Positions 21,316-61,348 of a DNA stretch of 64,000 nt are shown piece after piece. This DNA is from a virus, in the IMG/VR virus record IMGVR_UViG_3300044816_000082, positions 1 through 64,000 of that record, one strand, 5' to 3'. Every line of letters begins with the position of its first letter. Positions within the stretch are counted from its first letter, which is position 1. Position numbers and translations under genes: made by a program. Below the pieces are notes generated by a model. It did not search any database and was not told the origin of the DNA. It worked only from the letters and a program-made list of their open reading frames with translations.

Positions 21316-21529
21316 CGCGATGCTCCGTTACTTCGCCCGCGAGTCCATCGAGTTCGCAGCGCCGGTAGTGGCGGCGTGGGGCGCGAGCGTCCCACGCATC
21401 AGCCGCGTCGACCTGCGGTGCCTCGGCACGACCAAGAGCGGTCACCCTCGTCACCCTCTGTACGTCAAGGGCGACCACCCGCTCGTGCCCTTCCCATCAC
21501 TCGGTAGCGGCGGTGAGGAGCATGTCTGA
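21295..21529 (+). pseudogene. C-terminal fragment of DUF1643-like protein
   Basis: Reads TVGPQNDAML...VVAAWGA...CLGTTKSGHPRHPLY; N-terminal half absent. Confidence 0.7.
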
Positions 21530-21530
21530 G
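21498..21530 (+). repeat. Gene-junction repeat CACTCGGTAGCGGCGGTG..ATGTCTGAG (copy A of 6)
   Basis: Other copies at 54246, 54529, 54732, 60363, 61168. Confidence 0.85.
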
Positions 21531-21767
21531 CAGCGCTCCTGTGTGGAGACAGAGGTCGAACTCGTCTTGCGTCAGCACCTTCCGGTCCCCCTTGAGCGCA
21601 GCGCCGGGGTTTTGTGCCTCTGCGACCTGACGCGCTCGTACAACGGTCCCGTGGGTCAGCGGCTGCACGTTGCTGCTGAACTGCGGGAGGGCTGGCTTGC
21701 TGAGCGATCTGCCTGTCGAGCCAGACGACGGGATCACTACGTGGTGACCGCGCGACTCTCTCTTTCG

Positions 21768-22139
21768 TCAGGCCGCAGCGAGCGTTCCTGCGTCACTGCG
21801 GCGGTAGTTCATCACCGCCATGCTGCCCGTCGCGGCGTTCAGCCCGTCGTCACTGAACCGCTCGCCGGGCGCAACCTGCTCGCGGGTCGGCAGGCCGTAC
21901 CCGCCGTACCGCGACGTGAGCGCACGGACCGCCACGACGACGCCGCCGGGATAGAGGTCGGAGCTACGCCCGGTGTCCGGGACGACCCACACTTCACTCT
22001 TGTGGCCGGCACCGAGTTGTGGTGCCTGACCGATGACCATGCCGGTCCGTACCTCGACGGTCCCGTTGCCGCGAACGTGCTTCCACTCGACGGTCGATCC
22101 GACACCGCCGGGTTTCGGGGTGAAAGGCTTACGGGCCAT
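21768..22139 (-). CDS. Hypothetical protein, divergently transcribed
   Basis: Minus-strand GAAGGA SD, leader hairpin and promoter motif at 22191-22209. Confidence 0.7.
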   Translation of the reverse strand: MARKPFTPKPGGVGSTVEWKHVRGNGTVEVRTGMVIGQAPQLGAGHKSEVWVVPDTGRSSDLYPGGVVVAVRALTSRYGGYGLPTREQVAPGERFSDDGLNAATGSMAVMNYRRSDAGTLAAA

Positions 22140-22234
22140 GGGGTTTCCTTCCCTCGAGGGACGGAGAGCTGCTCCGTTCCCTGCCTACTAGTTGTATACC
22201 CGCTTAGCGAGTGTGCATGCGTTCCCTGCACAAC

Positions 22235-22256
22235 TGTCGGACTCGTGTCGTACGGT
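22235..22256 (+). promoter_or_regulatory. PafBC-type (RecA-NDp) DNA-damage promoter
   Basis: TGTCGG-ACTCGTGTCG-TACGGT = TGTCGG-N10-TANNNT. Confidence 0.65.
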
Positions 22257-22305
22257 TCTACCCGCAGGCCCGCCGAGCGAGCGGGCCGCTACAGGAAGGC
22301 GTTAG

Positions 22306-24768
22306 ATGACCATGACCGATGAGGTAGCGCGGCAGGGTGCTCAGCTCACGTCCCGCGAGCACGGGGCGCTCACGATCAGTCCCGAGCAGACGTGGTGGAC
22401 TGAGGCGCAGAACGCGGCGCTTGAGAGCATCGGTCTTCGCGACACCCCGAACGGGGACAGGGTCGCGTTCCTGCACCTGTGCCAGACGACCGGCCTCGAC
22501 CCCTTCCGTCGGGAGGTCTATCTGATCGGCCGGAACGACCGCACGGCACCGAGCGGTAAGAAGTGGACCGCACAGACCGGCATCGACGGGTTCCGGCACC
22601 TCGCGGAGCGGACCGGGGTGTACGGCGGGAAGGTCGGCACGCAGTGGTGCGGACCCGACGGTGAGTGGCGCGACGTGTGGCTGTCGACCGAACCGCCGTC
22701 CGCCGCGCGGGTCGCGGTCGCCCGGACCGACCTCGAGCACCTCGTGTACGGCGTCGCTGTCTACACCGAGTTCTGCCCGATGCTCGATGTGTGGACCGGC
22801 TCAGGGAACGCTCGCCGTAAGACTGGCGAGCAGGTCCCCGGTGACATGTGGATCAAGATGCCCTCACATATGTTAGCTAAATGCACCTCGGGCGACACCG
22901 AGGTGCTGACCGATCACGGCTTCCGCCGGTTCGACTCCGTGGCCGAGCACGAGCGCATCCTCATGGTCACCGAGCAAGGGCTCGTCGCGACCGACGCCCG
23001 GCCGTTCCGTCAGCCGTACAGCGGCCCGATGGTCACCTGGCGCGCGGGAGGTGGCGCAACCATCGACCTCGTGATGTCCCCGAACCACGACGTGCTGCTC
23101 AGCTCGGGCGAGAAGGTCGAAGCCGCCGACCTGCACGCCCGTACCACGGTCCGCAGCCCGGACAGCATTCCGCTCACGGTCACCGGCTCCCGGCCCGATG
23201 CTGACGTGAAGGACGACGCGCTGTACGCCGCCGCCGTGTACCTCGCGGACGGGTCCGACTACAACAAGACCGGCTTCGTTGTCGCAGTCTCACGCCCGAG
23301 GAAGGTGGACGCAATCCGTACCTTCGGTGGCTACCTTGACGAACGAATCCGTCGCTCGGCTGGCGACACCGCGACGTCCGCGAGCGGCCGGGTCATCACG
23401 ACCCGCAGCGACAAGCGCGTATTCGTCTACGAATGGACGGCGATCGCCGGGACGCCCGTGCGCCCGGGCAAGCAGCTCGACATCGACGCTCTGCTGGCGC
23501 TATCGCCGCGGCAGGCTCGGCTGCTCGTTGACACGTGGGCATGGTTCGACGGAGACACAGCGCACCCCGGCGGGACACGACGCATCAAGGTCGGCGACCC
23601 GCACCTCGCGGACGCCTTTGAAGTCGCCGCCGTTCACGCCGGGTACTCACTGTCCCCGCGCCGCCTACGCCATTCCGACCTCGGCGACGTGTGGGAGTTC
23701 ACGCTCTCGACTAAGACCGAGGTCCACGTCCGGCGTCGGAACGAGACAGGCGCTCGCGCGCTCGCGGGGCTAGACATTGAGCCGACCAACCCCAGCGGTG
23801 AGGTGTGGTGCGTCACCGTGCCCTCTCACGTCATCGTCATCCGACGTGAGGGCCTGTCCTGCCTCACCGGCCAATGCGCGGAAGCCCTCGCGCTGCGGAC
23901 CGCGTTCCCGCGCCAGCTCGCGGGGCTGCGGACCAGCGATGAGATGCAGTTCGCTGACGCGAAGCTCCGTAACGCTGAGGCTGACCTGGCGGCGCAGAAG
24001 GCCGCGCGGGAACTCGCCCGGGCTGAGGGCGCGAGCCGGCCGTGGGCGAAGGACGCCGACACGGTCGTCGTCGATGAGAACGGGGTGGTCATCTCGGGTG
24101 GGGACGTGCCGCTCCCGAGCCATGACGAGTTGTGGCATGACCTGACCGAGCAGGCACGGGTCCTGGGCAAGACGATCACCGCCCACACGACTCGATGGGT
24201 CGCGGCGCACAAGAAGAACGCCGACGAGGCCACCGATGAGGAACTGTACGAGTTCGTCGAGAGCCGTCGGGAACAGGTTGGGCGGCACCTCGCGGAGCAC
24301 CCCGACGTCGCACCGCCGACGCCGTACGTCGCACCTGAGCAGGAGGGCACCGCTGCCTCCACCGTCCCCTCCAACGGACCGGACGAGGACCCGGCGGTGC
24401 CCTCCGACGGGCCGGCCGTGCCTGTCGGTGACCTGTCGGTGAAGCCCCCGAAGATCCCACCCGCACCGAAGACCGACGGTCACCGTTCCGAGTTCGGGGA
24501 CCCGGTCCCGGTCGACATCGATGAGCGCCGCACCGCGCGTCGGTACTACATCGACAGCACCGACGACCTGTCGCCCACCGAGGAGGCCGACGCGTGCCGT
24601 CGGTCCGCGGCGATCGACGCGATGCTCGCGGAGGACGTCGGCCCGGCTCACAAGGACTACGACACGCTCGTGGAGAGCGCCGGGTTGTGGACCACCGAAG
24701 CCGAGATGGCGGAGACACGGATCGAGGTCGATGGTCAGGAGAACCTGTTCGACCCCGACGCTGAGTAG
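22306..24768 (+). CDS. RecT/Bet-like ssDNA annealing protein containing an intein
   Basis: GLDPFRREVYLI, QTGIDGFRHLAERTG, MW.KMP.HMLAK|CAEALALRTAFP motifs flanking the insertion. Confidence 0.9.
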   Translation: MTMTDEVARQGAQLTSREHGALTISPEQTWWTEAQNAALESIGLRDTPNGDRVAFLHLCQTTGLDPFRREVYLIGRNDRTAPSGKKWTAQTGIDGFRHLAERTGVYGGKVGTQWCGPDGEWRDVWLSTEPPSAARVAVARTDLEHLVYGVAVYTEFCPMLDVWTGSGNARRKTGEQVPGDMWIKMPSHMLAKCTSGDTEVLTDHGFRRFDSVAEHERILMVTEQGLVATDARPFRQPYSGPMVTWRAGGGATIDLVMSPNHDVLLSSGEKVEAADLHARTTVRSPDSIPLTVTGSRPDADVKDDALYAAAVYLADGSDYNKTGFVVAVSRPRKVDAIRTFGGYLDERIRRSAGDTATSASGRVITTRSDKRVFVYEWTAIAGTPVRPGKQLDIDALLALSPRQARLLVDTWAWFDGDTAHPGGTRRIKVGDPHLADAFEVAAVHAGYSLSPRRLRHSDLGDVWEFTLSTKTEVHVRRRNETGARALAGLDIEPTNPSGEVWCVTVPSHVIVIRREGLSCLTGQCAEALALRTAFPRQLAGLRTSDEMQFADAKLRNAEADLAAQKAARELARAEGASRPWAKDADTVVVDENGVVISGGDVPLPSHDELWHDLTEQARVLGKTITAHTTRWVAAHKKNADEATDEELYEFVESRREQVGRHLAEHPDVAPPTPYVAPEQEGTAASTVPSNGPDEDPAVPSDGPAVPVGDLSVKPPKIPPAPKTDGHRSEFGDPVPVDIDERRTARRYYIDSTDDLSPTEEADACRRSAAIDAMLAEDVGPAHKDYDTLVESAGLWTTEAEMAETRIEVDGQENLFDPDAE
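22882..23874 (+). mobile_element. Intein (331 aa) with LAGLIDADG-type endonuclease; ends Gly-Gln before Cys+1
   Basis: N-terminal CTSGDTEVLT, block B SPNHDV, YLADGS and AWFDGD, block F VWCVTVP, C-terminal LTGQ|C. Confidence 0.88.
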
Positions 24769-24873
24769 TACCCGCGCGTTGTCCCACTGTGACAGGTACA
24801 CGGTGTGGCAGGCTGCGGCCACCTTCGCGGGTAGCACCCGCACCCGACCCGACCCCGTCCCAGGAGGACAATC

Positions 24874-25374
24874 ATGGCTGAGGCATTCAACGGACTACGG
24901 CTGCTCGCCGGGCTCCCGAAAGCGAACGGACTCGCGCCGCTCGCGGACGACCTCGTAGCAGCACCGGACAGCATCGTGGTGGTCGTCGCGACCCTCAAGG
25001 TCAAGGACCTCAACCATCACGTCGAGACGGACAGCACGACCGCGGTCACCCGTTTCCAGCAGATCGAGGCGATCGACGGCGCGGCGCGGCAGACGGTCCT
25101 CGACATCTTGACCAAGACCCGGGAGGACCGCACCGGGGAGAAGGCGATGATCTCCCCGAGTGGGGAGATCGTGGTGCAAGAAAGCCCTGCGGCGGAGCGG
25201 GTCACCGGCGGGGACAGTCCCGACGCGGCCGTCGAGGTCCCGTCATCGGCGTTGGGGGTGGCGTTCACCGAGAAGGGTGACGACGGGTGGGAAGACCCTG
25301 AGCCGCCGTTGCCCGTCAAGGATCTCGCGGCGGAGAAGGCCAAGCGGGCTGCACGGCGCCCCCCGAAGCCGTAA
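24874..25374 (+). CDS. Hypothetical protein
   Basis: AGGAGG SD; leader hairpin. Confidence 0.65.
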   Translation: MAEAFNGLRLLAGLPKANGLAPLADDLVAAPDSIVVVVATLKVKDLNHHVETDSTTAVTRFQQIEAIDGAARQTVLDILTKTREDRTGEKAMISPSGEIVVQESPAAERVTGGDSPDAAVEVPSSALGVAFTEKGDDGWEDPEPPLPVKDLAAEKAKRAARRPPKP

Positions 25375-25387
25375 TCCCAGCCTGATC

Positions 25388-25409
25388 TGTCAGCGCTAGG
25401 CGCTAACGT
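25388..25409 (+). promoter_or_regulatory. Second PafBC-type promoter overlapping an early-motif copy
   Basis: TGTCAG-CGCTAGGCGC-TAACGT. Confidence 0.55.
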
Positions 25410-25468
25410 GGTTGACGATCGACGGCCCGGCGAGCGACCGGGACGAGGAACGCACGAGGAGGACACCT

Positions 25469-26671
25469 GTGACCATCATGCCGCTGACCGAACTTCTGGC
25501 CGGCACCCCGGCGCGCTCGGAGTGCCGCGAACCTGAGTGCGACCGGCCGATCCGGCGTCGGGGCCTGTGCTCGCGGCACTATCGGCAGGCGCGGCAGGTC
25601 GAGCGTTGGCGTGAGCTGGCACCGACCGCTCCGTCGCTCAAGGACGCCATGCGCATAGCGGACGAGATGCGGGACCGGTCGATGAAGACGGCCCGGGCAC
25701 GTGCCGAAGGCCGGTTCGGAGTCGGTCCGTCGGACCTCACGACGTGCCGGAAGCAGATCGAGTACCGGGAGAACCCCCCCGAGGGCTACGTCCCTGACCC
25801 GGTCGACAAGGGCGCCGCGTACGTCGGGACCATGATCCATGAGGGGATCGCGGCGGTCCGGCGCATCCTGTACCCGTGGTGTGAGATCGAGCGGGAGATC
25901 CACGTCCCGGGACTTGATGAACCGGGGCACGCGGATGTGTGGGACCCGATCGCTCACCGGGTCGAGGACGACAAGAGCGCCGGGGAGTGGGCGTGGGAGA
26001 AGATCGGACGGGACGGCGCCCGCGAGGAAGACATCGACCAGGCGATGCTGTACGCCCTCGGGTTGGCTGAGGAAGGGCTGACCGTCGTGACGGTGCGGTT
26101 GAACTACATCCGGCGAGCCAACGGCGAAGTCGAAGTGTTCGACTTCCCCTACGACCGAGGTCGGGCGCTCACCGCCTTGGGGCGGTTGCACACCATCCTC
26201 GATGACCTGACCGACGGCCGCGAGCTGCCCCGTGATCGGGAAGGACCGAGCATCGACCCGATCTGTGCCAGGTATTGCCCGGCGGTCAGACACTGCTGGG
26301 ACCTGCCGAACGTGCCGCAAGGCCGGACACCCGAGTCGTGGGTCAAGGTCCGCGATGACGAGACGATCGCGGCGTTGCTCGTCGACTACAACACGGCCCC
26401 GACCCCGGAGGCCAAGAAGCGGATCCGGGTGCTGCTGACCGGGTTGGACGCGGGGAGGTACGGCGACTTGATCCTCGGGTGGCGGGGTGGGAAGACAACC
26501 GAGGTGCAGGACCATGAGGCACGCTTGGTGCAGCTTGAGGCGGCGCTGCTCGCAGGGACGCCGCTGTCAGAGTTGGAGTACCCGATGAAGTCTGTGACGA
26601 GCAACGTGTCGATCAGCGTCGAGGCTGTCCGGCAGGCCACCCTCGACGCCGAAGCCGCGGAGGGACAGTGA
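25469..26671 (+). CDS. Cas4/RecB-family PD-(D/E)XK exonuclease with N-terminal Cys/His finger
   Basis: GPSDLTTCRK, GTMIHE, GHAD, EDDKS, QAMLYA, C-terminal CARYCPAVRHC. Confidence 0.8.
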   Translation: MTIMPLTELLAGTPARSECREPECDRPIRRRGLCSRHYRQARQVERWRELAPTAPSLKDAMRIADEMRDRSMKTARARAEGRFGVGPSDLTTCRKQIEYRENPPEGYVPDPVDKGAAYVGTMIHEGIAAVRRILYPWCEIEREIHVPGLDEPGHADVWDPIAHRVEDDKSAGEWAWEKIGRDGAREEDIDQAMLYALGLAEEGLTVVTVRLNYIRRANGEVEVFDFPYDRGRALTALGRLHTILDDLTDGRELPRDREGPSIDPICARYCPAVRHCWDLPNVPQGRTPESWVKVRDDETIAALLVDYNTAPTPEAKKRIRVLLTGLDAGRYGDLILGWRGGKTTEVQDHEARLVQLEAALLAGTPLSELEYPMKSVTSNVSISVEAVRQATLDAEAAEGQ

Positions 26672-28156: not shown

Positions 28157-28165
28157 GAGCTCCGC

Positions 28166-29507: not shown

Positions 29508-29677
29508 GACGTGGAGGTTGCGCCAGAACGGGCGTAACGTCCCTGCGGGCAAAAGGGAGGGCCGGTCCGCTGACGACGGACCGGCCCAAAGCTCCCCACC
29601 CGTCACCCAACGGAGGAACCGGCCTTGAGCGTACCCGCCGACAGAACGCACGGACCGACTGAGCTCCGAGCGATTCG

Positions 29678-41899: not shown

Positions 41900-44800
41900 A
41901 TGACCACCATGGCCAAGCCCACCGTCGAGCCCTACCAACTCAAGAACGCGGCCGGCTCCTTGCGGGGTTACGCCGCGATGCAGGCCGATGACTGGCAGCC
42001 GGAGTACGAGGCATGGCGACACGGCGGGTGGTACGTCATCACCGTGCGGTACCCCTCCGGGGCCGTGGGCTGCGTGAGCCGCAACTACCCGGACGGGAAG
42101 TGGCGGGTGGTGTGCGGTGACCACGACATCACCTACCCGAACCGGACCGCCGCCGCCAAGGCCGAGCGGGACATCGCCACCCTTGAGTGGCACACCCTGA
42201 TCGCCACTGCCTCGTGAGCGCCGCGGTCAGGATCGTGAAGCTCTACCTACGGGCCGACGGGACCGTCCGGTCCGCGACGGTGTTCCTGCCCGGCTACGTC
42301 GAGGTCACCGTCGATGTCACCACGGGCGTTGTCAGCTACGCCTCGGACTGGACCGTGGACGGCGACACCCTGGCCTGGGGCCGTAACTACGGCCCCAGCA
42401 CGTACGGCCACACTGACGTTGTGCTCGTCCCGTCGCTCCTCAAGGCTGTGCAGGCCGCGGTGGAAGCGTAGGAACAGCGCTTACCGGGTATACAATCAGT
42501 AGGCAGGGTTGCTCCCCGCCACGACGGAAGGACCATCATGTACGTGACCGCGAAGCTCCACACGATGCGCAAACCGCAGCGCTTCCACGTCAGCCCCATG
42601 AGCGACGGCCGGATCCTCGTCCAGAGCGACAAGAGCATCGGGGTGTTTGACTTCCGCACCTGCGAGGGTGTCCTGAACGTGAAGGGCCACTACTTCCCGC
42701 ACCTCAACCGTGCGCTCGGCGCGATGGCGTTCACGTTCCCGCTCGAGTTCGTCACCGAGTGCCTCGAGGCATCGCCGGCGCTCGACAGCGTCACCCACAT
42801 GGGCGGCGTGACGTTCGTCAACACGATCGAGGTGATCTGATGGACTACGGGATCCTGTTCAGCCACGCGTCCGAGGACACCATCCCCGGTCTCGTGTCGG
42901 GATCGTTCCCGAACATGGTCGCAGCCAGCAACGCGGCCATAAAGGTCACCCGCGCGGCGGGGGTCCGTTTCACCCTGGTGCAACGCTCGTCCCCCGACGC
43001 CCCGTGGCTGTCCCGGAAGGGACTGACCCCACGGGAGCGTCTCCACGAGGGGATCAACGCGGACTGGCACGGCTGGTCCCGCTGACCCCACCCGGGGGCG
43101 GGTAGCTACCCGCCCCCCCAACCCAAGGAAGGACCATCATGATCGCGATTCTCGACCTCGTCGCCCGCAACGGCATCCCGTTCCGGGTCGTGTTCTACCA
43201 CCCCGGCGAGTCAGGGCCCTACCCGGCCGCGGCTGACCCCGAGCACCCGATCGTCGAGTTCTACGTCCGGCGTTTCCCCCACACCGACCACGGTCAGTTC
43301 GTGTCCCGGTACTACGCCGACACGATCCTTCGTCGGGGGTCGTTCCCGATGGGTCCCGGTCCGCTCAACCTCGACGGGGGTATCCCTGCGTGGAACATCG
43401 ACGCGGACAGCATGGTGCTCGTCAGGGACTTCCTGACCCACCACCACCCCGCTGTGGTCGACTGCTGCCTCCGAGCCGGTCACGTCCCGCCCTGCACCGA
43501 AGGGGTCGCGCAGGTACCCCCCGCGAACCTGTGCAGAATCACCTGACACAGCACGTCAACCCGCTATACAATGAGGGTGAGAGGGGTAGCGCCCCTCCCC
43601 GATGGAAGGACTGATCATGACCACAAGCACCGTCCACATGGACACGCTGAACGCTGTCCTCAACGCCTACGTCACCGAGACCAGCGGCGACGCGTGGCTC
43701 GAGGGCGGCGGGGGTGCCGGCCCGTGGATCTACGCACCCACCATGAACGGGTGGACCGTCGTCATCGACGTCACCCTCGAGCGGTGGGAAGCGTCCCGGC
43801 AGCACGACGACTACGACCCGGTGGCGCTCCCCGACGGCCCGGCCATCGACGCGCCCGTCACGGACGTCGTCGCGTGGATGCGACGTTGCTGCGACGCCGA
43901 ACCGGACCGGGACTCGCGGCAGTACGTGATCGGTCTTCCCGTCGTCATCACCGTCGCGAGCGACGGGACCGTGACGGCGGAGGTCGACCTGAGCGAGGCC
44001 GACGACATCTACGACGTGTCAGTCCCCGAGGGGCAGGACACGAGCGCGTCAGCCCTCGACCACGACGCGTCCCGGATCGCGCACGCAGCCAGCACCGGGC
44101 AGGTCACGGTCCGATGATCACCCCGGGCCTCGTCAAGGGTCGCGCTGAGAGCCACCCATGTACTCGCTGCGACCACCTTGGGCGGGTGACCTACCTCGCG
44201 TTCGGCACGTTCGTGTCGACCAAGACCTGCCCGGCGTGCGGTGGGCTCGGCATGGTCACCCTTCCCCGCGCCCCCCTCGTCCTTGCCCCGCACGTCCTCG
44301 ACACGATCACCGAGCTTGACCTGATCGACGGTGGGTGGACGACACGTTGCACTGCCTGCGGGGACCTGCTTGACGACCCGGTCGACGCCTCCCGGTACAG
44401 CACGCTGTGCGCCGGGTGCCGCGCTGAGGAAGCATTCCGCGACGGCGACCACGATGCCTACGATCGCAGGGGAGACAGGTAATGGAACCGCTCAACGGCG
44501 CCGGCCACTACCGCGAGGCTGAGCGGCTCCTGAACGACGCCGCGAGGATCGCCCACGAGGGGGAGCCTCAGACCTACTGGTACTCGGAGCAGGTCCAGGG
44601 CCGGGTCCAGGCAGCGGCCGTCCACGCGCAACTCGCGACGGCCGCCGCGCTGCTCGGTGAGTTCGAGCAGGGACACGACACGTGAACCGGCACGACGCTG
44701 AGCACCTCAACCGTTGGCATGATGACGGGACCTACCTTGAGCGGTTGTGGGCCGCGTTGACCCGCGAACCTCTCCCACCGATCCCCCGACCCCGAGCTGA

Positions 44801-45582: not shown

Positions 45583-48500
45583 CAGACGGCGACCCCGTCG
45601 ACGAGCTCGACGTCATCGAGGCTGTGGTGGAGGACCTGGAGGACTTGTATAGCGATGCCGAACGTATCGGTAGGCGTCCCGTCGGCCTGGTACGGGACGC
45701 TGTCCACGATCGCGGGTGTCCTGGCGATGCCCGTGAGGCACGCCTCGAGCGGGACCTCGACAACGCCCGGGAGCGCCTCGCGACAGCCCTGAACGGCAGG
45801 AAGTGGAGCGCCGACGTGATCCCGCCGCCCCTCGAGGAATCACTGCGGCGCGTCGAGGCACTCCTCCTGATCGCACCCGACAGCCCGGAGCATAGATGAG
45901 CAAAGGCCGGTCCCGTGCGACGGTGACGCCAGCAGCACCGGACTTCCACCGGGTCCGGCACTTCGGGTACAGCCCGGTTGGGACGGAGGTCTGCCTGTAC
46001 TGCGCGGTCATGTTCGACCCCGGTGAGATGCGCTACCAACTCGTCGATACCCGGTTCGTGTACCCAATGGGAGCGATCTTGCCGCTGCACCTGTCGTGCG
46101 CCCGTGCGCGTAAGGCCAACCCGCCACCGCCCCGCGAAAGGATCTGGCATCAGTAGATGAACACCGACCCGACCCGACCCTGCTGCGACCTTCACTGGAA
46201 CGGCGGCATCAACTGGTGGGGAACCACCCATGACTGTCCGCGTGACGGGGAGGGCATGACGCTCTGCTGCGGGCGGACGCCCTTCGACCTGCCCCGTTCC
46301 GACCACATGACGATCGACGCCACACTCGTCACTTGCACCGGGAACCGTCATCTCTGACTTCGAGGCCACCGCCCTGCAGGACCTGCTCACCAAGGCCAAG
46401 GCGCTCGGCGTCCCGGACGACCACCCGCGCGTGTTGGAGGTACAGGCCATGCTCGAGCACGGACCCGGGTCGTGGGCTGCCCGACGCTGGCACGAACTCC
46501 ACCCCGACGAAGGCCCGAATATTATTCGAGGCTGCTGTTACGGCGAGCTCCAGTCCTGGGACCGCTGCACATGCTGGACGCCGGTGTTCGACACCGAGCA
46601 GGCGATTCCTCAAGTCATCACCGACCGCGCCGAGCTCGTCGCTGCGGACACGCTGTGCGGGGACTGCGCCTACCGACCCGGGTCGCCCGAGCGGGAGGAC
46701 ACGTACACCCGCGAGACGCTCTACAGCCTCGCGTCCCGCGACCAGGCGTTCTACTGTCACCGCGGAATGCGCCGCCCTGTGGCGTACGAGCATCCGGACG
46801 GGCGCCGGGTGGAGAGCTCCGGGGATGACTGGACACCCGCGATCGTGGACAGCGTCCCGTACCAGGCCGACGGGACGCCGGGGGTGCTGTGCGCTGGGTG
46901 GGCCGCGCAGCGCCGCCGGGTCACATGACGCTGCTCGCGCCGTTCGAGGAGGACGCCCTCGAACGATGGGCCGACCACGGCGGGGCGCTCGTGGTCTGCA
47001 TCGATGACGCCGAGGACCCGACCCGGGCTAGCGTCATCGCGCTGCGCCCCGGCGCGGACCCGGCCGACTCCCTGCTGCACTGGCGCAAGTGGGTCGCTCG
47101 GCACTACGACCGGGTCCTGACGGAGGTTGTGGTTGTGCGGTGCGAGTGGCGAAACACCTGGGTTGACGTCGCCCGCGCCGGGATCATCAGCGAACCCGCG
47201 ACCGCGACCTGAGCACCGGGCCGGCGTTAGCCTGCCGTTCAACACCGACCCGTCGGAGGACCTCATGGCATCAACCCGCGCAGCGCTCGGCAAGACGGTC
47301 CGCGTCATCGCCGTGTCGTTCACCAAGAACTAGCCGAGCTCGGCGTAGCGTCCCCGGCCATGACAACACAGATCGCCCTCGAAACCGTCACCGCGGTGAT
47401 GATCAACACCGATGAGTGGGTCGAGGTTGAGGTCGGTCATACGACCGTCGACACGGTCGCGATCACGAGCCCCGGTCCGCGAGACGGGCAGCGCACTATG
47501 CACCTGGACGCGCAGGCAGCGGGAGGTCCGCACCTGGCGTTCACCGACAAGCACGGAGCGCGGGTCGTCGTCCCCGTGTCCGCTGTGCAAGCGTGGCGTC
47601 TGCGCTGAGCACCCCCAACCCCGGCCGGTAGGCGACCCGGCCTTCATGGAAGGACCAAGCATGCGTGTGACCACGTTCAACTACCGCCGCGACGGCAGCC
47701 GCGAGTATCGGATCCACCGAGCATGGACGGTCCGGGACATCCCCCGCTGGGCGTTGCTGCTGTGCCGCCTGTTCGGTCATCGGCCTGTCACCGCCGGGTT
47801 CGACAGCAAGCACATCCCGCCGAGCCGGTGGGTCGAGTGCCGACGCTGCGGATCCCGTCCCCAATGGCAAGGCCGGTTGAGCGCCCTGGCTCACCCCCAT
47901 ATCGGGAAGCGGTACCGCGGTCAGTGGGCACCGGACGACACCGCCGACCTGATCCTGCGCGCTGGGGAACTCACCCATCCCCGGTACAAGATCAAGGACG
48001 ATGAACTGCCCTCCTTGCCGTGCAAACCATGGAGCGCCTCTCCCCGACGGGCCACGTTCCGCACTGAACTGAGCATGCGGCGCCGATGGTTACGCGACGG
48101 GCTGCTAGACCTGACGTTCCGGTTCACCACCGACGCGTACGACGGTGGCATGGGGATCTGGCTGACCATCGGGCCGTTGTTCATCAGCGCCGACCTTGAG
48201 CATGCGTTCGAGCGGTTCCACCGCTGGCTCAAGCACGGGTCGTTGGATGAACGCGAGTTCGAGGTCGGGATACGAGGCTGGACTCTGCACCTCACCCCGT
48301 GGGGCGTCGCGCATTCGTGGACCCGGGCGGATCCGTGGTGGAAACGTGGCGTGTCGATCGACCTCAAGGACAGGATCCTCGGCCGGCCGATCTACACCAC
48401 CGTCACGGTCGAGGAACCAACGAGCGTGATCGTTCCCATGCCGGAAGGTCCCTACGCTGCGACGATCACTCTCGAGCGGGCCATGTGGGAACGCCCGCGC

Positions 48501-50048
48501 CTGACCCGCCTGACCCGGAACGTCGTGTACCGGTACGACCTGACGCCGGCCCATCACATCCCCGCACCGGGGAAGGGCGAGAACTCGTGGGACTGCGGTG
48601 ATGACGGGACGTGGTCGATAAGCGGTCCTTGCGCAGGACCGGACACGGAGTGGAAAGCGAAGGCTGTGGGCGATCTCGTCGCGTCGTGCTTGCGTAGTCG
48701 TGAGCGGTACGCGTCATCGTCGTGGGTACCGGACGCGGGGTGGCCGAGCGAGGACGAGCGACTCGGTCGCGTCCCGGCGTGAGCCCGGCAACCCGCAACC
48801 CGGGTGTGCCGTCGAAAGCGGGTGCTCCCCGTCCTGACGGGTTCCTGCTCCGCCCCGCCCCGACCGCGGAGCACCTGTGCACCCCACCCATGCGGGAAGT
48901 CCGGATCTACGCCCCCCGCGGGCCGGCCGTCGGGGAGCGCTGCACATGCCGGGCTGACACCGGGGAGGTCGATGTCGAGTGTCCCGCCGACGGCACCCCC
49001 ACGCCCCGCGCATACCACCCTGAGGACGTCCCCGACGGTGAACCTGGGACGTTGTGGCGATGCAGGTGCGGCCAACCGTGGCAGCTCCGGGTCCGGCAGG
49101 TCGAGCGGGATCGTGGGGTGTATCACGGGGTGCGGGTGTGGGACCGGACCTCCGAACGACAGGTCAGGCGAGCGCTGCGCCGCGCCCGCCGGCGAGGGTG
49201 GTGGCGACGTGGCTGACACTGTCGACCGCCGGGTCGTGGAGCTAACGGCCCGTGCCCGCGCCCAAGCGCAGCACAGGTACCGCACCGGGCGGATACTCCC
49301 CGACCCTGCTCTGAACGGTCGCGGACGGGTGCTGTTCACTGTGCTCTGCACCTGCGGGGAACAGACGGAGAGCCTGCACGAGCCGGACCTTGAACCGTGG
49401 ATCGCGCGGCATGTCGAGAACAACGCCCGCGTCGCCGCGGCCTCGGCGCTCGCTGATCTCGGACAGGAGGGCCATGAGTGACCATCCCTTGCCGCTCGGG
49501 GCATGCCCGATCCCCGGGTGCAGCAGTTTCGGGGGAAGCCTCCACGACGCCCCGGCGCATGAGCGGTGGGCGATGACCGGGGCACCCCTCTCCGTCAACA
49601 CGCCGGTGGTCGCGGCCGTGTCCTCAACGATCTTGTCGCCGCGCTGCGGGCACCCCGGTCCCCTGGTGCTCAACGGAGGGGGGTACGCCGGGTGTGACCT
49701 CCCCTTTGACCACGAGGGGGATCAGCACAGTTTCACCGTGAAGTGGGCACGAGGATGAACAGATGGACGCAGGTCTTGCCGTGGATCCCGGTCGACGTCG
49801 CGGACGCCCTCCGCACGGGGTGCATCACCGTCGCGGGCATCATCGTCGTGACCGCGTTGTGGTCTATGCGGACACGGTCCACGTCGCACCGGCAACAAGC
49901 CCGGTACCTCGGGCTCGCGCTGTTCGCGGTCGCTGCGATCTACACCGAGATCGATCGGTTCCACACAGGGGCGACGATCAGGCTCCCCGTGACGGTCTTC
50001 GCGGTCCTCGCGTCGATGTACGGGCTCAGCCACGAACGGCAATCCTGA
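45579..50048 (+). other. Array of small hypothetical ORFs including 47661-48782 (N-terminal LLC..FGH..CxxC) and TM protein 49755-50048
   Basis: Coupled overlaps; coding-like codon usage. Confidence 0.5.
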
Positions 50049-53036: not shown

Positions 53037-53410
53037 CCGCTGAGTCCTCTACACGCGCGGCCGTCGCGGACCGCAGCCAAGGTCGCTGCGAAATGGGGTG
53101 CGGGCAGCGGGCAGTGAACGTCCACCACCGCCTCAACCGATCTCAGGGTGGGGTGTGGTGCCCCAGCAACGCCCTCCACCTCGACGGGAGCGGGACGACC
53201 GGGTGCCACGGGAGGATCGGCGCGAACCCCGAGTGGGCGTACGCAGAGGGACTCCTCATCCACAGGGGGCAGGACCCGCGACTGGTCCCTGTCCGCCTCC
53301 AACACCCCGTGTACCTGGCGTGGTGGTTCCTTCTGGACGCAGGGGGTGGGGTGGTGTTCCACGAGGACTACCCAACCCCGTCAGCACAGGTCACCGGACT
53401 CATCGCCTGA
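53033..53410 (+). CDS. HNH-like endonuclease
   Basis: RSQGRCE..C....HHR..RSQGG.....N...L.GSGTTGCHG. Confidence 0.75.
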   Translation: MTAESSTRAAVADRSQGRCEMGCGQRAVNVHHRLNRSQGGVWCPSNALHLDGSGTTGCHGRIGANPEWAYAEGLLIHRGQDPRLVPVRLQHPVYLAWWFLLDAGGGVVFHEDYPTPSAQVTGLIA

Positions 53411-54205
53411 ACAGGACCTAGCGCGCTAACGTGGTTGACAATGAGGGGGCAAGCGGCCCCTTCCGTCGAGGAGGACACCCATGAGACACCACCACTACCC
53501 GCACCACCCGCGGGTACTCGACCTCATCCACCACGCCGTGTCGCACCGTAAGCCCCGGCCACCGTCGTACGCGTCGGTAGCGTTCAGCGCCCCCGTGCTG
53601 CTGTGGAGCTTCCTTCTCGCCGCGATCCCCGGTGCCGGTGCCGCGTGGCTGTGGCAGCCCCTCGGCCCGATCGTCCTGATCATCGTCGCGGTGTACCTCA
53701 TCGACCTGTTCGGCAGGCTCGGCCGGCGTGAACAGCAACGGCAACGACGATGAGTCTGCTGCACGGGCGGTCCCCCGCTGATCGGGTCGAGCAGGCGAAG
53801 GCGCACTGTGAGTACCTGCGGGTCGCGATCCTGCGCGCCCCGTGGGCGCACCTCGAGAAGACCGCGGACCATCCGACGAACTGCCCGACGCCGTGTGCGC
53901 ACGAGCAGCGGCTCCGCGCACAGCTCGACGTGTACCTCGACGCGTTCCTCGAGGAACACCCCCACCCGACCGGGTGAACGTCGGTGTGTCACGGCACCCG
54001 CCGGGGTTAGGGTCGTGTCACCCTTCCCGGATGAACGTCACCGACCTCCGGGGAGCACGCCTAGCCCGGCTGCGCCGGATCGCCCCGACGCACCCGGTCT
54101 TCCGCGTCCCCACCCAGCGGGACACCCCGGTTACACCGACGCTAACCGGGTATACACTTGTTGTAGGGGACCGGGTAGCCACCGGGTCCCGCGAGGAGGT
54201 TCCTG

Positions 54206-55046
54206 ATGACCCTGACCTACGGCTGGTGTGGAACCACCATGCATCCACTCGGTAGCGGCGGTGGGCACGATGCCTGAGCAGCCTTCCCGTGTGGTTGCTG
54301 AGACGTGCGCCAGCCTGCTCACCGACCCGAACAGACACCATCACCGCTGCGACCTAGCCCCTGGACACGACGGGGACGAGCATCGCCATCAGATGCCCGG
54401 CTACGCGCTGACCTGGCTAACAAGGGACGAGTCGTCCCTCACCGGACGACTCGAAGGGTTCTGTGGACAGGAGCCCGACCACGGCCCGCACACCACTCGT
54501 TTCATGTGGTGCATCGGTCACGGACCAACGCCCGGTAGCGGCGGCACGGAGGGCGAGCGGTGAGCGCCCGAGCGTGGATTGCGCGCAAGAACGGGCAGCA
54601 CAGCGACCAGGCCAAGGCCGACCGCAAGGAGGCCAAGAGGCGTTGTCGTCACTGCCCGGAGCCGTGGTACGACCATGCCTACGGCGACACTGGCAAGCGC
54701 GGCCTGACCCATCGACTGGACGCGCAGCCAGCACCCGGTAGCGGCGGTGGGTCCGATGTCTGAGGGGAGCACGCCGAAGCCCATAACGAGCGACAACGTA
54801 GACACCTGGCTCTGCACCGTCCAGGGGGTTGCGCACGACTTCCGGCTCCGCGAGTGGCAAACCGCTTGGAACACTGTTCGCACTTCCTGGGTGTGCATCT
54901 GGTGCAACGGGATCGCCTGTGGCGACCACGACGAGGTCGACCCGTGCTGGCTCATCTACCACCACCCGACTGCGCACAAGACACGTTCTGGTGTCGTCTG
55001 GCCGCTAGGAGGAGCGCGCCCGCGACCGACCGCTAAGGCGGGCTGA
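54206..55046 (+). other. Cassette-like array of 4 small ORFs separated by junction repeats B, C, D
   Basis: ORFs 54206-54277, 54270-54563, 54560-54763, 54756-55046; repeats at 54246, 54529, 54732. Confidence 0.7.
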
Positions 55047-55138
55047 AAGCGGGTTCGTGGCGCACCCCGTCAACCGGGTATACGATGGTGGGCAGCCCGG
55101 TCGGGATAGCCACCCGACCCGAACGCTAGGAGGACCTC

Positions 55139-55276
55139 ATCGCATACCTACGGCGCCTGCTCTGCGGTGCCCTCGGCCACCGTCCGTCCCTAACCGAATG
55201 GGTCACCACCGACAAGCGCAGCGTGCTCCGTCCCTGCACACGTTGCGGTGCCTACCTCAAGAGAGAAGCCCGATGA
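55139..55276 (+). CDS. DUF1660-like small ORF with ATC at the expected start position
   Basis: GGAGGA SD, then IAYLRRLLCGALGH...CTRCG; overlaps next ATG. Confidence 0.5.
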   Translation: MAYLRRLLCGALGHRPSLTEWVTTDKRSVLRPCTRCGAYLKREAR

Positions 55277-56140
55277 CGACTGATGTACCCCCTGACGCCG
55301 GCCGTGCTGTCCTCGACGTCGAGCTCGTCCTGATGGACGCCGCCGCGAAGTTGTACGGGAGCTTCCGTGACGCCGCAGAGGCGCAACCCGATGCCAGGGT
55401 GACTCCGGAAACCATCGACGCGCTGCGGATCAGGACCGCCGATGAGATCGAGACAGGAGCGAGTGAGGTCGCCCTGAAACTCCGCAACGCGGTCCGGGAC
55501 CGGATCCGGGAACGCAGGACGAGGGACGGACTCGAGTGGCATGAGGACGCATGCAACCTGCCTACGTCCGAGACCGAGGTGCTGTGCATCCTCGCGGTCG
55601 GGCACGTCGGTGCTCACCTACCGGAGGTCTGACCCGTGGCGACGTTCACGCACAATCGGTGGGTCGAACGACGCGCCGTCGCCCACCTCGGTAGCTCTGA
55701 CGACCTGTCGCGTGGGTACTTCCAACTCGCCGTCGACGCCGCGGCCGAAGCCGGGCTGTCCCCCACAGGCAAGTGCACCGGCCACGTCCGCGACAGTGAC
55801 CCGAGCAAGGGCGAGACACCCGACGGTGTGATCATCACGATCGACGTCCAATGCGAGGACCACGACGAGAAGGCTCCCGCCATGGTGGCCGCGTTCAGCC
55901 CCGACGAGCTGCTCCGGGAGGCACTGTTCAACCCTGGACAGGTATGTGTCGACACCGGCCGGCACACGTTCCTCCCCGCCGACAGCGAACGGTTCCGGAC
56001 CTACCCCGAGTCGTTCGCGACGTGCCTCGCGTGCGGGGCCGTCGTCACCGCCTACGCGATCGCGACCTCCGCCGGCCTCGCCTGGTGCGCCTGCTCCCGT
56101 TGGGAACAGGCCGACCTGATCAAGGCCGGGTGCATCCACG

Positions 56141-57012: not shown

Positions 57013-58754
57013 GGTCGTGCTCTACGAGGTCCCCCTCACAGTCTGCTGGGCATGCCTGAGCGGCGAGGAAGGTGAGTGTCACAGCCCCGGGTGCGCGTTC
57101 TTCATCTGCCCGGCCCCGACCGCTGAGCAGGCCGAGCGGCTGCTGTCCGCCATGGCGAACGCGACGTGCGTCGAGTGCGGCCACGAGCGCGGGCAGCACT
57201 GGCAGTACCACCACACCTGCCAGCTCTGTCAGGACGACGGGCAGCGGTGCTCCGCGTTCAGCGGCGGCCACGGATGACGCCTGAGCAAGAGACCGCAGGG
57301 GGGTCTCTCGTGGCTGATGAGCACAGGTACCCGGATCGCGTCGAGAGGGCACGGGCGGTCCTCACGAGCGAGTGGCAGACGTTTCACGAACTGTTCCCCG
57401 GCATATGGGGGCTGGACGCGAAGTGGGAGACGGGCGCTCTGGTATGGCTACGGAACCGGCGCCTCGTGGAATCCCGCTTCACCGCCGCTGGCGTCACGCA
57501 GTGGAGGACTCGTGGCTGACGTCAGGGCTCGTGCTGTCGACGCGGTCTTGGCGTTGTGGCGTACGAGCGGGGAGGACGACCCGTCGTGGCCCGACCACGC
57601 CGGCCGGATCGTCGACGTCGTCATCGCAGCTCTCCCCCCTGTCCTCGCCCCGGGGGAGTCCCCGCTGATCGACCTGCTCGCAGCGCTCAAGGTCGCGCCG
57701 GGGAACCTCGAGCGGGTACGCATGGCGCAGGTCGTGATCGACCGGGTCGCGGAGGTACGGGACTTGTCGATCAAGGCGGTGTGGGCGACCCGCCCTGACG
57801 GCGCGACCGCGTCGGGCCTCGCCCGGCACACAGGTGTCCCGGTAGGTATCGTGAACGTCGTCATACACGGAAGGGACCGACGATGAGGGCAGACCTCCCC
57901 GACCCTGCAAGCGCGTGGAAGCGATACGAGAACGGCGCTGGGCCGATGCACGAACTGACCGTCACGATCGCTCGTGTCCTCCACAACACCTTTCGCTCGG
58001 ATGGTTCGATCCGCAAGTCGTGGGACGAGGACGTGGTCACAGACCAGTGGCTCGCGGTTGGCTCCTGGCAGGCCGCTGAGCGTGTCGTTGCCGTGCTGCC
58101 GATGGTGGTGAAGCCATGACCAGCGAGGGGGGTCCATCCCGTGTGGCCGTCCCGCTCGTCCTGCTCCGCGAGGTTCTCGCGCTTAGCCCTCGGACTATGG
58201 ACCGTCCCAAGCCGCATCGCCAACCAACTCGTCACGGAAGGTGCACGATGACAGACCAAGACGTCACCGAAGGTCGAGAACAGTGCGAGAACATCCTCGC
58301 CACAGTCCACATCGCACGGCAACAGATCTACGAGCTCGTCGCTGCGAATCGACTCACGCGCATTGACGCCGCGAAGCTCCTCGTCGATTCGTATGCCGTT
58401 GAGGGTGAAGCGCAGGGCGCGTTGTTGCTGTACGGCGGTGCTGCATGACGTGCCGGGGGTTGCAACGGAATGTTCATGTCTTTCCGTTGTTCCTCGTCAC
58501 GTTGCCGATGTGCTTGCTGTTGATCGTTCTCATCTTTCTCGCGGCGACTGGACATCACCCGACGTCGTGCGGTGCCCGATGAATACGGGTTCTTGTTGCG
58601 CTCACTCTGACGATGAGCACACCGGAGTTGAGGGCGACTGTTGCCGCTGTAGCTGCGTGAGGTGGGCGCACGGAAAGGGTCCTTCTATGCCGGTTGAGCC
58701 GGGGCGTTCTCTCTCACCTGAACCCACCCCATCGGATGAGCGGGTGTCGTCGCC

Positions 58755-59573
58755 ATGAAGGTGGTCGCAGCCACCTCGGGCGGCCTGGGGAGCTTCGGGG
58801 CCAACGTCCGCGCCGTCGAGCGGTACGGCGCAGAGAACGTCACTGCTCTGTTCACCGACGTGCTCATGGAGGACCAGGACGTCTACCGCTTCCTGGTGGA
58901 GTCGTGCGAGGCGCTGGGGATCAAGTTGGAGATCGCCTGCGACGGGCGCACGCCCTGGGACGTCGCCCACGAGGAAGGCTTCATCCCGAACAACATGGTG
59001 CCGCTGTGCTCCCGCATCCTCAAGATCGAGCCTGCCCGACGCTGGATCGAGGCCAACGCCCCCGATGCCCTGCTCGTCTACGGCATCGGCTGGGACGAGG
59101 CGCACCGCGCCGGACCCATCGCGGAGGCCCAGCGCCCACGTGATGTGTGGTCGCCAATGCTCGAAGCGCCCTACTTCGACAATGACGACCTAGCCCGCCT
59201 CGCACGCTCCTACGGCATCGAGCCGCCCCGCATGTACGCCGCTGGCTACGCCCACGCCAACTGCGCCGGAGCCTGCTTCCGGGCCGGTCACGCAGCCTGG
59301 CGGCTCGTGCTCCGCGACAGCCCCGACCTGTTCCTCTGGCACGAGTGGCAGGAGCACCACTGGCGGCGCACCTGGGGACGATGGGCAGCGGTGCTCAAGT
59401 GGCGCACCAAGGAGCGCGACGGCCAGCCCATGACGCTGCAGACCTTCCGGCACCTCATCGAGGCCGAGGACTACGGCCAGCTCGACCTTATGGACTTCGG
59501 CGGCTGCGGCTGCAACCCCGGCGACAGCGCAGGGCTGTTGCTCCAGATTGGCTCACGAAGGGACGCGGCATGA
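58755..59573 (+). CDS. PAPS-reductase-like / adenine nucleotide alpha-hydrolase protein
   Basis: SGG.GS PP-loop, EDQDVYRFL, CSRILKIEP, HANCAGACFRAG, GGCGC. Confidence 0.75.
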   Translation: MKVVAATSGGLGSFGANVRAVERYGAENVTALFTDVLMEDQDVYRFLVESCEALGIKLEIACDGRTPWDVAHEEGFIPNNMVPLCSRILKIEPARRWIEANAPDALLVYGIGWDEAHRAGPIAEAQRPRDVWSPMLEAPYFDNDDLARLARSYGIEPPRMYAAGYAHANCAGACFRAGHAAWRLVLRDSPDLFLWHEWQEHHWRRTWGRWAAVLKWRTKERDGQPMTLQTFRHLIEAEDYGQLDLMDFGGCGCNPGDSAGLLLQIGSRRDAA

Positions 59574-59575
59574 CG

Positions 59576-59975
59576 CTAGCCCGTCATCCCGGCCAGGAAG
59601 GACGCCACCCGGTGCGAGGCGTGCCGGTCGCGGTTGTTCTTCGCCATGTCGTACAGCCCGGTCGTGCGCGGGTCGGCGTGCCGCATGGCGATCTGCATGT
59701 CCCTCATCGGCACACCGCTGACCAGGCCGCTCGTGCAGAACGTGCGCCTGAGCCCGTGCGGGGTGATGTGGTGGCAGCCGGCGACCTGCCCGATGCGCGT
59801 GACGAGGCGTCGGGCGTCCTGCTCGGTGAGCGCGTTCCCCGCCTGGTTGTGGAGCAGCGGTCCGCTCGTCCGCGTGCCGACGACCTCACGGACGGCCCGC
59901 ATGACTGGGATGGGGAGCGGGATCGTCGCGGGCTTGCTGCCCTTCCCGATGAAGGTGAGCATGTCGTACCCGCCG
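59576..59975 (-). pseudogene. Second truncated tyrosine recombinase (C-terminal part only)
   Basis: GKG, PHGLRRTF, MRHADPRTTGLYD; lacks first catalytic Arg region. Confidence 0.8.
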
Positions 59976-60402
59976 AAGGGTGACCGGCCTCCATTCGGCT
60001 GCTGCCTGCTCATCTTCACATCCACCGCCGAGGAGGCTGCCACATGACCGCTGAGGGGCGTACTCGCTCACCATGCCCAAGCATCTACCCGCCGAGCGCC
60101 GACGCACCTCACGCGGGCACCGGCTGGTCCAGGCCGCTGCGATGCGTGATGAGCACGGACCACTGGCCCGAAGGTGTGACGCCCCCGGTCCACTGGAACG
60201 GCGGCATCTCCTGGCGCGACGAGCCCACCCCGACGCCCGGAACGACGTGCGGCACGTTCGGCTGCGACGAGCCCGCCGTGGTCCGCATCATCAGGGGCGA
60301 GGAGTGGTTCCCCGGCTGGTACTGCGCCGAGCACGGCGAGACAGCACCCGCCAGGACTCCGTCACTCGGTAGCGGCGGTTCGGATCAGGCTGGGCAACCC
60401 GG

Positions 60403-61026
60403 ATGAGTGAGCGTGACCACGTGACTCCGAAGCGAACATGCGAACGGGCTGGATGCACCGAGCCCCACAAGGCGAACGGGCTGTGCCACAAGCACTACAA
60501 CCGAGAACGGGACCGCACCGGGCGAGAGCGGCCCGATCGGGTACTCGCCTGTCGGGCACGCGGTCGAGCGGTCGCCGCCCTCATCAAGGCTCATCCGGGT
60601 GAGTACGCCGAGTTGCTTACAGAAGCAACCGCCAGCGTGCACGAGGAGCACCTGCACCTCGCGGCCTTAGCAGCAGAGGCCGGCCTCGACCCGAAGCAGG
60701 GCATCGTGCGCCTGCGAAAAGGGCCACGCCCGACAGACCAGGAGGTCGAAGACCGTATCGACTTGAGCGTGACCTCATCCTGTGACGCCTGCGCGAGCTT
60801 CCACCGCACCGACCACTCCTGCTCATCCTGCGAGGACCGCACTTGGCAAGCCGCTTGCCAAGTGCGGCCGACATCGACGCCGCTTGCCAAGTTGAGCCCG
60901 GAGCAACGGATCGAGCGGGCACTGCGCGCGGGCAAGTCGGCACGCTGGATCGCTGACAACCTTGCCGAACCGATACAGCTCATCCTGCGTGTCCTCGATC
61001 GACTCCGATCGGAGAATTGGTCATGA
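60403..61026 (+). CDS. Zn-finger plus C-terminal HTH protein
   Basis: C...GC......GLC.KHY; GKSARWIADNL. Confidence 0.6.
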   Translation: MSERDHVTPKRTCERAGCTEPHKANGLCHKHYNRERDRTGRERPDRVLACRARGRAVAALIKAHPGEYAELLTEATASVHEEHLHLAALAAEAGLDPKQGIVRLRKGPRPTDQEVEDRIDLSVTSSCDACASFHRTDHSCSSCEDRTWQAACQVRPTSTPLAKLSPEQRIERALRAGKSARWIADNLAEPIQLILRVLDRLRSENWS

Positions 61027-61348
61027 CGCAGGTACAGGCAGCCGTCCGGCGGATTGAGGCGTTGCTGGACTCCTACACCCGCGCGGGCGGCAACCTCGAC
61101 CCTGAACTCATCTACGCCCACAACGACAACGAGTTGCGCGTGAGTGACCTGCGTCTACTTCTGGCGACACTCGGTAGCGGCGTTCCGATGTCTGAGGGGC
61201 ACGCTCCGGTTGTCTGCCGGTGCATCGAGATCGAGGGTGGCATGGACCGGACGGTGTGCCGTGCGGACGAGCACCGCGACTACTGCGAGAACCGAGCTTG
61301 TTGCGCAGAACGCGGACACGAAGGCGACTGCGACGAGACGGCTGCGTT

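Follow-up and report, generated by a model that had tools for sequence, protein, structure and literature searches.

How the modules of mosaic phage genomes come to be joined is a long-standing argument, in which one side holds that the joints arise by random illegitimate events filtered by selection (PMC3029335). Repeated sequences at gene boundaries have been described in several phage groups. The start-associated sequences (SAS) of Cluster K mycobacteriophages have the sequence GGGATAGGAGCCC and occur at 93 sites across the Cluster K genomes (PMC3203893). In T4-type phages, small genes are bounded by promoter-early stem-loop (PeSL) cassettes, for which PeSL-bounded insertions and deletions as well as mini-circles have been demonstrated (PMC2839356). 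Inserted open reading frames (ORFs) that duplicate the 3' end of the gene upstream of them have also been published, and the gp67/gp68 pair of the Cluster I phage Island3 has been interpreted as recombination between short repeats at gene ends (PMC3029335). Here we describe a 16-base repeat, CRCYCGGTAGCGGCGK (the junction core), in the uncultured phage of IMG/VR virus record IMGVR_UViG_3300044816_000082. The first 64,000 nucleotides (nt) of this record are called the window.

The repeat is best filed with SAS, PeSL cassettes, and the Island3 gp67/gp68 junction repeat, and not with an integron-like gene-shuffling machine, which is what an earlier note on the window had proposed. We give a probability of roughly one half to the reading that it is a start-associated junction adaptor and also a homology patch, or a scar, of ORF insertion, deletion, and fusion. 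No new category is opened, as comparable repeats have been published. What the phage contributes is a clear case of a boundary sequence kept at the DNA level and placed exactly where the homology of the upstream gene stops, with a visible gene fusion.

Position, frame, and spacing of the junction core

CRCYCGGTAGCGGCGK has six exact matches, all on the + strand, at 21498..21513 (copy A), 54246..54261 (B), 54529..54544 (C, a CGCC variant), 54732..54747 (D), 60363..60378 (E), and 61168..61183 (F), and none in 100 shuffles. The whole 90,880-bp genome contains these six copies only. A relaxed pattern added two one-mismatch sites, neither of them at a gene junction, and the one on the + strand (34682) lies inside a gene and out of frame. 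Every other site has at least three mismatches, so the junction family is discrete. It is also the top direct-repeat family of the early region. All copies lie between 21.5 and 61.2 kb, in the non-structural region, and none is among the virion genes.

The record, of which the window covers the first 64 kb, is complete, bears direct terminal repeats, and has a GC content of about 68%. The virion genes, placed by the tape measure, the portal-MuF fusion, the major head protein, and the terminase, occupy 63-90 kb and 1-20 kb, and the non-structural genes occupy about 20-63 kb, nearly all on the + strand. No close phage was found in GenBank, where megablast with 53.5-62 kb as the query returned no match. 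For the RecT gene and one small ORF, the top protein matches come from Gordonia and Mycobacterium phages; an actinobacterial host is therefore likely.

All six copies are read in one frame as (L/P)-G-S-G-(G/V), near the 3' end of a small ORF. In copies A, B, and D, the next ATG begins exactly 24 nt after the start of the motif (21522, 54270, and 54756), so that the core ends 8 nt 5' of it, and the upstream TGA lies inside ATGYCTGA. The next start is GTG at +31 (54560) in copy C, with a GTGA overlap and 15 nt between core and start, and ATG at +40 in copy E, with an ATGA overlap and 24 nt between them. Stop and start thus overlap at five of the six copies, an arrangement that is the usual signature of translational coupling. 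For the ATG starts predicted here, the alternative is a GTG in the same frame, three codons further upstream. At copy F the ATG stands at +20 and not at +24, only 4 nt from the end of the core, and therefore the two ORFs are joined in frame and read through as ...LGSGVPMSEG.... On each of these points, namely the six positions, the 3'-end placement in one frame, the 24-nt spacing with stop overlap in A, B, and D, and the in-frame fusion at F, the earlier note had read the sequence correctly. A frameshift site was also considered and rejected; no slippery sequence was present, and the overlap is an ordinary stop/start arrangement.

Around the starts of A, B, and D, conservation is bipartite, in that 15-16 of the 16 core positions and 8-9 of the 9 in ATGYCTGAG agree, against 3-6 of 8 in the 8-nt spacer between them. 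As the spacer has diverged between two kept blocks, the blocks appear to be constrained or repeatedly converted, not recently copied. Identity between copies A and B is 84% over 49 nt (wider module 21494-21546), D and F have TCCGATGTCTGAGGGG in common, and A and E share four bases 5' of the core. Otherwise, identity between copies drops at once 5' of the core to a background of 17-35%, and the 3' extents differ between the A/B and the D/F pair.

These features resemble those of SAS, which are likewise short, asymmetric repeats of one orientation, confined to the non-structural half of the genome, and which combine a Shine-Dalgarno-like part with conserved positions unable to pair with rRNA (PMC3203893). 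SAS sit close to the following start codon, usually an ATG, and at least in A, B, D, and F the core is placed in a similar way. An SAS can also include the upstream stop and is attached to genes of unrelated families, and its function is likewise unproven. The differences lie in the sequence itself, in the number of copies (six here, against several to many per Cluster K genome), and in the distance from the repeat to the start, which is 8 nt in A, B, and D, 4 in F, 15 in C, and 24 in E, against 3-7 nt for SAS. In addition, the junction core always lies in one frame within the upstream ORF and has a second block over the start codon.

The conservation is at the DNA level and not at the peptide level, because all six copies use the codons GGT-AGC-GGC for G-S-G, a combination used by none of 11 other G-S-G peptides in the gene set. 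Under the codon usage of the genome itself, the chance that five further copies agree in these codons is about 7e-9. Free synonymous variation, on whose absence the earlier note had made its case depend, was looked for, and none was seen in the G-S-G codons of the six copies. We therefore regard it as very improbable that the peptide is what matters, with the C-terminal P-x-(L/P)-G-S-G-G tail serving as a tag for processing, degradation, or targeting. Such a tag would agree with the single reading frame of all copies, and the two codons 5' of the core vary in sequence and still mostly encode P-(S/T/A). However, the residues past GSGG vary in both sequence and length, the peptide is missing from the outside homologues of the ORFs upstream of copies E and F, and in the fused ORF at F the "tail" is internal. 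Contamination by an adaptor or a synthetic linker was rejected as well, the copies lying in frame inside natural ORFs that have outside homologues.

Predicted pairing with the ribosome and a proposed role in translation

For GGCGGUG(A/G)G, at the 3' end of the core, pairing with the 16S rRNA anti-Shine-Dalgarno tail is about as strong as for ordinary ribosome sites, at -9.6 to -10.9 kcal/mol against a median of -8.8 for the + strand genes, the tail sequence being that generally given for actinobacteria. At copy F, where the ORFs are fused, this pairing is lost (-3.5 kcal/mol). The 5' half of the core, CRCYCGGTAGC, takes no part in it.

We propose that the repeat would be a portable gene-junction module acting in cis on the mRNA. 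Its first part would supply the last codons of the upstream ORF, and with them the same (P-x)-L/P-G-S-G-G tail on unrelated proteins. The second would be the Shine-Dalgarno-like GGCGGTG at the 3' end of the core, and the third the 8-nt spacer, variable in sequence. A fourth part would follow in A, B, D, and F, the kept block ATG-YCT-GAG, which in A, B, and D would double as the start codon of the next ORF and as the stop, read in the other frame, of the ORF upstream; F is without a separate stop. The likely job of the module would be to pass ribosomes between consecutive small early cistrons, whatever ORF comes after. A cis role in translation is our first choice because the conservation is bipartite and the Shine-Dalgarno-like 3' half is correctly spaced from the start. 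The module might also be a homology patch or a scar of general recombination, by the phage RecT/exonuclease or host RecA, because it is the only sequence that these ORFs share. Insertion, deletion, truncation, or fusion of accessory ORFs in the lineage would have come about in this way, and the recombination would then be a consequence of the translation role or the means by which the module spread. Translational coupling, recombination at the motif, and any role of the 5' half are what we infer from the arrangement of the copies.

The main rival to this adaptor is an operator for a trans-acting factor, which could be a DNA site of a phage regulator that would block or tune transcription across the units of small genes, as in stoperators, or an mRNA site where a translational repressor or small RNA would mask the ribosome-binding region, as for RegA. 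We consider it unlikely, but several features would suit it. All copies of this asymmetric 16-nt word point in the direction of transcription, and a bound factor would account for the invariant 5' half, which is beyond the reach of 16S pairing. The conserved blocks together reach from about -24 to +9 relative to the start, which is close to the footprint that a factor bound at the ribosome site would have, and the core is kept even in C and E, where it stands away from the start. The authors of the SAS study also left factor binding open for their repeats (PMC3203893). Against an operator, there are just six copies, all in one frame inside ORF tails, whereas a binding site needs no fixed frame; the core has no dyad symmetry or conserved fold; and no candidate binder was identified. 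The stoperators of Cluster A phages are likewise short asymmetric sites oriented with transcription near gene boundaries, but they are 13 bp long, number 24-34 per genome, are mostly intergenic, and have a known repressor (PMC3029335).

No conserved RNA structure was supported at the copies. In 83-nt windows around them, folding was no better than in shuffles (z-scores of -0.6 to +1.2), and an alignment fold of the copies yielded no consistent structure, the individual folds being weak and different from one another. A search of Rfam with 53.9-61.5 kb, the stretch that holds copies B to F, gave no match.

Homology breakpoints and gene fusion at the core

The ORFs that flank the copies, all on the + strand, have nothing in common beyond the tail encoded by the motif, and some of their neighbors are truncated, both as the earlier note had stated. 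Three upstream ORFs could be tested, those at A, E, and F, and in each of them the family homology goes no further than the 5' edge of the motif. The ORF upstream of copy A (21320..21529, 69 amino acids) is the C-terminal third of a phrog_3230/DUF1643-like protein with a truncated N-terminus. Its match to the profile (positions 113-164 of 167, E 4.8e-10) extends as far as P59, and from S60 onward the ORF reads as the motif tail, SLGSGGEEHV. The ORF upstream of copy E (60149..60406; the start is uncertain, 60044 or 60149) has a sole outside homologue, P0004, which it matches through ...APARTPS; P0004 then continues with PADSD where LGSGG stands here.

At copy F, the breakpoint lies within a single ORF of 109 amino acids (61023..61352), an in-frame fusion of two ORF families. 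Its residues 3-57 match stand-alone small proteins (P0013, of 63 amino acids, P0007, and P0009), which diverge right past ...LLLAT. LGSGG is missing from the homologues of this part, as it is from that of the ORF upstream of E. Residues 69-109 match a C-terminal module, YCENxACCxERGHEGxCDERAAL, on proteins with unrelated N-termini. Judged by these protein matches, the ORF is a genuine fusion of two ORFs that occur separately elsewhere, because its halves match separate families. The YCENxACCxERGHEGxCDERAAL module (61265-61352, about the last 27 codons) is found on metagenomic proteins (P0011, P0012, P0014, P0015, and P0016) and would be a small Cys/His domain or else one more mobile gene end.

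The ORF that follows copy A (21522..21662) starts with ATGTCTGAG..., its first nine or so codons resemble the ORF after copy B, and it is probably a remnant, because its coding signal is lost after about 45 codons. Copy B lies in a 23-codon ORF (54206..54277) that ends in ...PLGSGGGHDA. The next ORF, of 97 amino acids (54270..54563), starts with MPEQ, ends in ...PTPGSGGTEGER at copy C, and has no homologue but itself. It is followed by an ORF of 67 amino acids (54560..54763) ending in ...PAPGSGGGSDV at copy D, and then by one of 96 amino acids (54756..55046). Downstream of copy E, an ORF of 207 amino acids (60403..61026), of a family that includes P0002 and P0003, has homologues that are 62-67% identical; these and phrog_5351 align only from about residue 10, the N-terminus MSERDHVTP being private to this phage. 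This downstream observation is in line with a breakpoint at the junction.

The last ORF of the B-C-D array (54756..55046) has 48.8% identity with an 86-codon ORF that lies, unannotated, between genes 78 and 79 of Gordonia phage Squiddly (MN096370.1, about 48268-48528). The Squiddly ORF is bracketed by two copies of the 18-nt GGTGGTCGSGGTGAGTAR, the sole exact copies in that genome, which give gp78 and the bracketed ORF the same tail, GGGRGE, and provide the GTG at which the next gene, overlapping, starts. The cassette is missing from phage PhorbesPhlower, where a gp78 homologue, a single junction copy, and the beginning of the following gene are present, and in Malisha a third gene stands behind a related junction. 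On this comparison of genomes, the arrangement in Squiddly and PhorbesPhlower is the topology of PeSL (PMC2839356) and of Island3 gp67/gp68 (PMC3029335). At Island3, an inserted ORF that has no homologue shares C-terminal residues and about 50 bp with the upstream gene; that case was a single two-copy event seen from two close genomes, whereas six copies occur in one genome here. The Gordonia comparison shows that the process is real in actinobacteriophages; that it occurred at the motif of the present phage does not follow from it.

Two further observations were made on these Gordonia phages. Gene 79 of Squiddly may truly start at the GTG inside the second GGTGGTCGSGGTGAGTAR copy, and not at its annotated start. 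At gene starts of Squiddly, stretches of 35-58 bp recur at 90-100% identity (mostly 97-100%) in numerous Gordonia phages of otherwise dissimilar sequence, among them BritBrat, Attis, Lahirium, and ParvusTarda; they lie at 2342-2382 and 1984-2018, in the numbering that places the bracketed ORF at 1498-1758, and are short conserved blocks at mosaic boundaries.

The motif was searched for in 2.9 million viral contigs, JGI metagenomes, and GTDB genomes. The full junction pattern (core, N8, ATGYCTGAG) did not occur in the viral contigs and had one chance match in the metagenomes and one in a Chloroflexi genome. In the viral contigs, the 14-mer core gave single chance matches only, and the 18-mer CACYCGGTAGCGGCGGTK gave 10 unrelated single matches, none at a junction and none in a contig sharing proteins with this phage. 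Relatives were located through a PAPS-reductase-like protein (33% identity) and TerL (46% identity); the motif was not enriched in them, and they had no early genes in common with this phage. Profile-guided locus searches of the viral contigs for the families of the ORF downstream of E and of the first half of the fused ORF found nothing, nor did tblastn of four ORFs (upstream of E, upstream of C, the fused ORF, and downstream of E) against GenBank phages.

Several of our results weigh against an adaptor that also serves as a homology patch. No related genome bearing the motif was found, and no swap, insertion, or deletion at the motif was seen in this phage. In copies C and E, the core is 15 and 24 nt from the next start, too far for a ribosome site, and the invariant CRCYCGGTAGC is not explained by ribosome binding. 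The tails of the outside homologues also differ from one another (P0007 and P0013), and the motif may just sit in a naturally variable tail. The tail of the ORF upstream of E may align weakly past the motif, which would fit a small patch conversion and not a breakpoint. Identity of 16 to 50 nt is also a short substrate for homologous recombination. Finally, the atypical composition of the flanking ORFs, which would speak for the adaptor reading (median GC at third codon positions, GC3, of 0.77 against 0.84 in other small early genes, and codon score of 0.06 against 0.27), comes from a biased comparison, since an ORF had to have a positive codon score to enter the comparison set.

Lower GC3 and codon scores would be expected of an inert scar, in which the six junctions came from one foreign donor lineage or from local duplication and have no present function. 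The truncated or decaying genes beside copies A and E and the restriction of the motif to these sites in the genome would also fit. We nevertheless hold an inert scar to be quite unlikely, since the divergence of the spacer beside a nearly invariant core is hard to obtain without constraint or ongoing conversion, and no donor bearing the motif appeared in any of the collections searched.

Recombination genes and the promoter-like word

The earlier note had attributed gene exchange at the motif to a RecT/exonuclease pair or a site-specific recombinase. Such a pair is indeed encoded downstream of copy A, and it would offer a general route of exchange between repeats. The RecT-family gene (22306..24768, + strand, 820 amino acids), a candidate general recombinase, begins about 0.8 kb downstream of copy A, and its presumed partner, an exonuclease-like gene, lies at 25469..26671 (+ strand). 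The RecT match is limited to residues 49-193 (profile positions 21-164 of 198), and the domain is interrupted by a long insert. Repeats of 16-50 nt are short for RecT/exonuclease-type exchange. The insert in the RecT gene begins with C-T-S-G-D-T-E-V-L and is intein-like, with no Hint-domain match in Pfam at E 0.001.

The two tyrosine-recombinase ORFs of the genome are also encoded in the window. An XerC/D-like recombinase of 236 amino acids lies at 10-720 (+ strand), at the left end of the record adjoining the terminal repeat. A tyrosine-integrase fragment (59576..60019, - strand; Pfam positions 60-168 of 172) adjoins the ORF upstream of copy E and is divergent from it. The fragment lacks its N-terminal part, and its GC3 of 0.92, well above the phage average, suggests that it is captured host or prophage DNA. 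Against the integron-integrase model TIGR02249, whose cut-off is 265 bits, these two ORFs score 47.6 and 29.7 bits, and both matches span the shared catalytic end only. No serine recombinase was found in the genome.

With these scores, a dedicated site-specific system, in which a recombinase reads the motif and excises or inserts single ORFs, is highly improbable, and the integron-like interpretation of the earlier note was not sustained. The likeness to integrons would be that of a same-orientation array of single promoterless ORFs behind a promoter-like word with a recurring sequence between them, and the sharp 5' edge of the core and the small tyrosine recombinase at 10-720 add to it. However, the phage has no IntI-type integrase; no attC-like inverted repeat, stable fold, or GTTRRRY core was found around the copies; and neither tyrosine-recombinase ORF adjoins a copy in a way that suggests an attI site beside an integrase, with no integrase gene next to the B-C-D array. 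The site occurs in no other record scanned, and the different 3' extents of A/B and D/F resemble homologous exchange and decay, not a fixed crossover point. We give similarly little weight to a further reading, which we think very doubtful, that the core is the site of a phage factor driving ORF capture, excision, or fusion at coupled junctions by a mechanism distinct from integrons; the putative factor could be the tyrosine recombinase at 10-720, or RecT/exonuclease with an accessory protein.

The B-C-D array (54206-55046) was said in the earlier note to lie behind an early promoter. The array and an upstream promoter-like word, AACCGGGTATAC, are present; that this word is a promoter we infer. 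AACCGGGTATAC occurs about 11 times, at 20317, 41837, 42482, 43558, 54144, 55072, and 56695 in the window, at 71514, 72062, and 75418 in the rest of the genome, and at 22205 on the - strand. Downstream of most copies comes a hairpin whose stem varies and covaries and whose loop is xAGCx; GGAAGGA and then ATG (mostly ATGACC) follow. The array starts 50 nt past the copy at 54144 and ends 26 nt before that at 55072, each of which has a leader hairpin after it. The word and hairpin before the array (54144..54191, + strand) form a repeat family separate from the junction core. A scan of 53400-55700 for promoter-like and terminator-like sites found none.

This promoter-plus-hairpin family is a closer structural analogue of PeSL in this phage than the junction core is. 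Like PeSL, the core is a repeated sequence flanking small ORFans in a plastic part of the genome, and PeSL have been proposed as substrates of homologous exchange that inserts or deletes single ORFs with expression kept. A PeSL, however, is about 100 bp long with a sigma-70 promoter and a terminator hairpin (PMC2839356), and the core has neither.

The leader hairpins themselves were well supported, with 79% of cells paired against 64% in shuffles and with covariation. A covariance model of ten of them (R1) recovered them and gave further candidates at 43093, 51273, 22264, 49228, 41473, and 25421. The core might be a small member of this family, sharing its xAGCx loop and read by the same RNA-binding factor. 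A short bulged stem closed by the loop GUAGCGG can be drawn for it, GUAGC stands in the loop of three leader hairpins, and copy C is changed on both sides of one proposed pair (A:U to G:C). However, even with filters off and E values up to 10 allowed, the model recovered not one of the six junction copies, which largely refutes the idea, and the weak, mutually unlike folds and the folding z-scores given above add to this. We regard membership of the core in the leader-hairpin family as extremely improbable.

Two minor observations concern other parts of the window. A minus-strand ORF of 123 codons (21768-22139), with no family match, has its own AACCGGGTATAC and leader hairpin (22205, - strand) and converges on the decayed ORF past copy A. 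A tRNA-Arg (gcg) called by ARAGORN at 10812-10898 lies within a 1569-amino-acid ORF and is probably a false positive.

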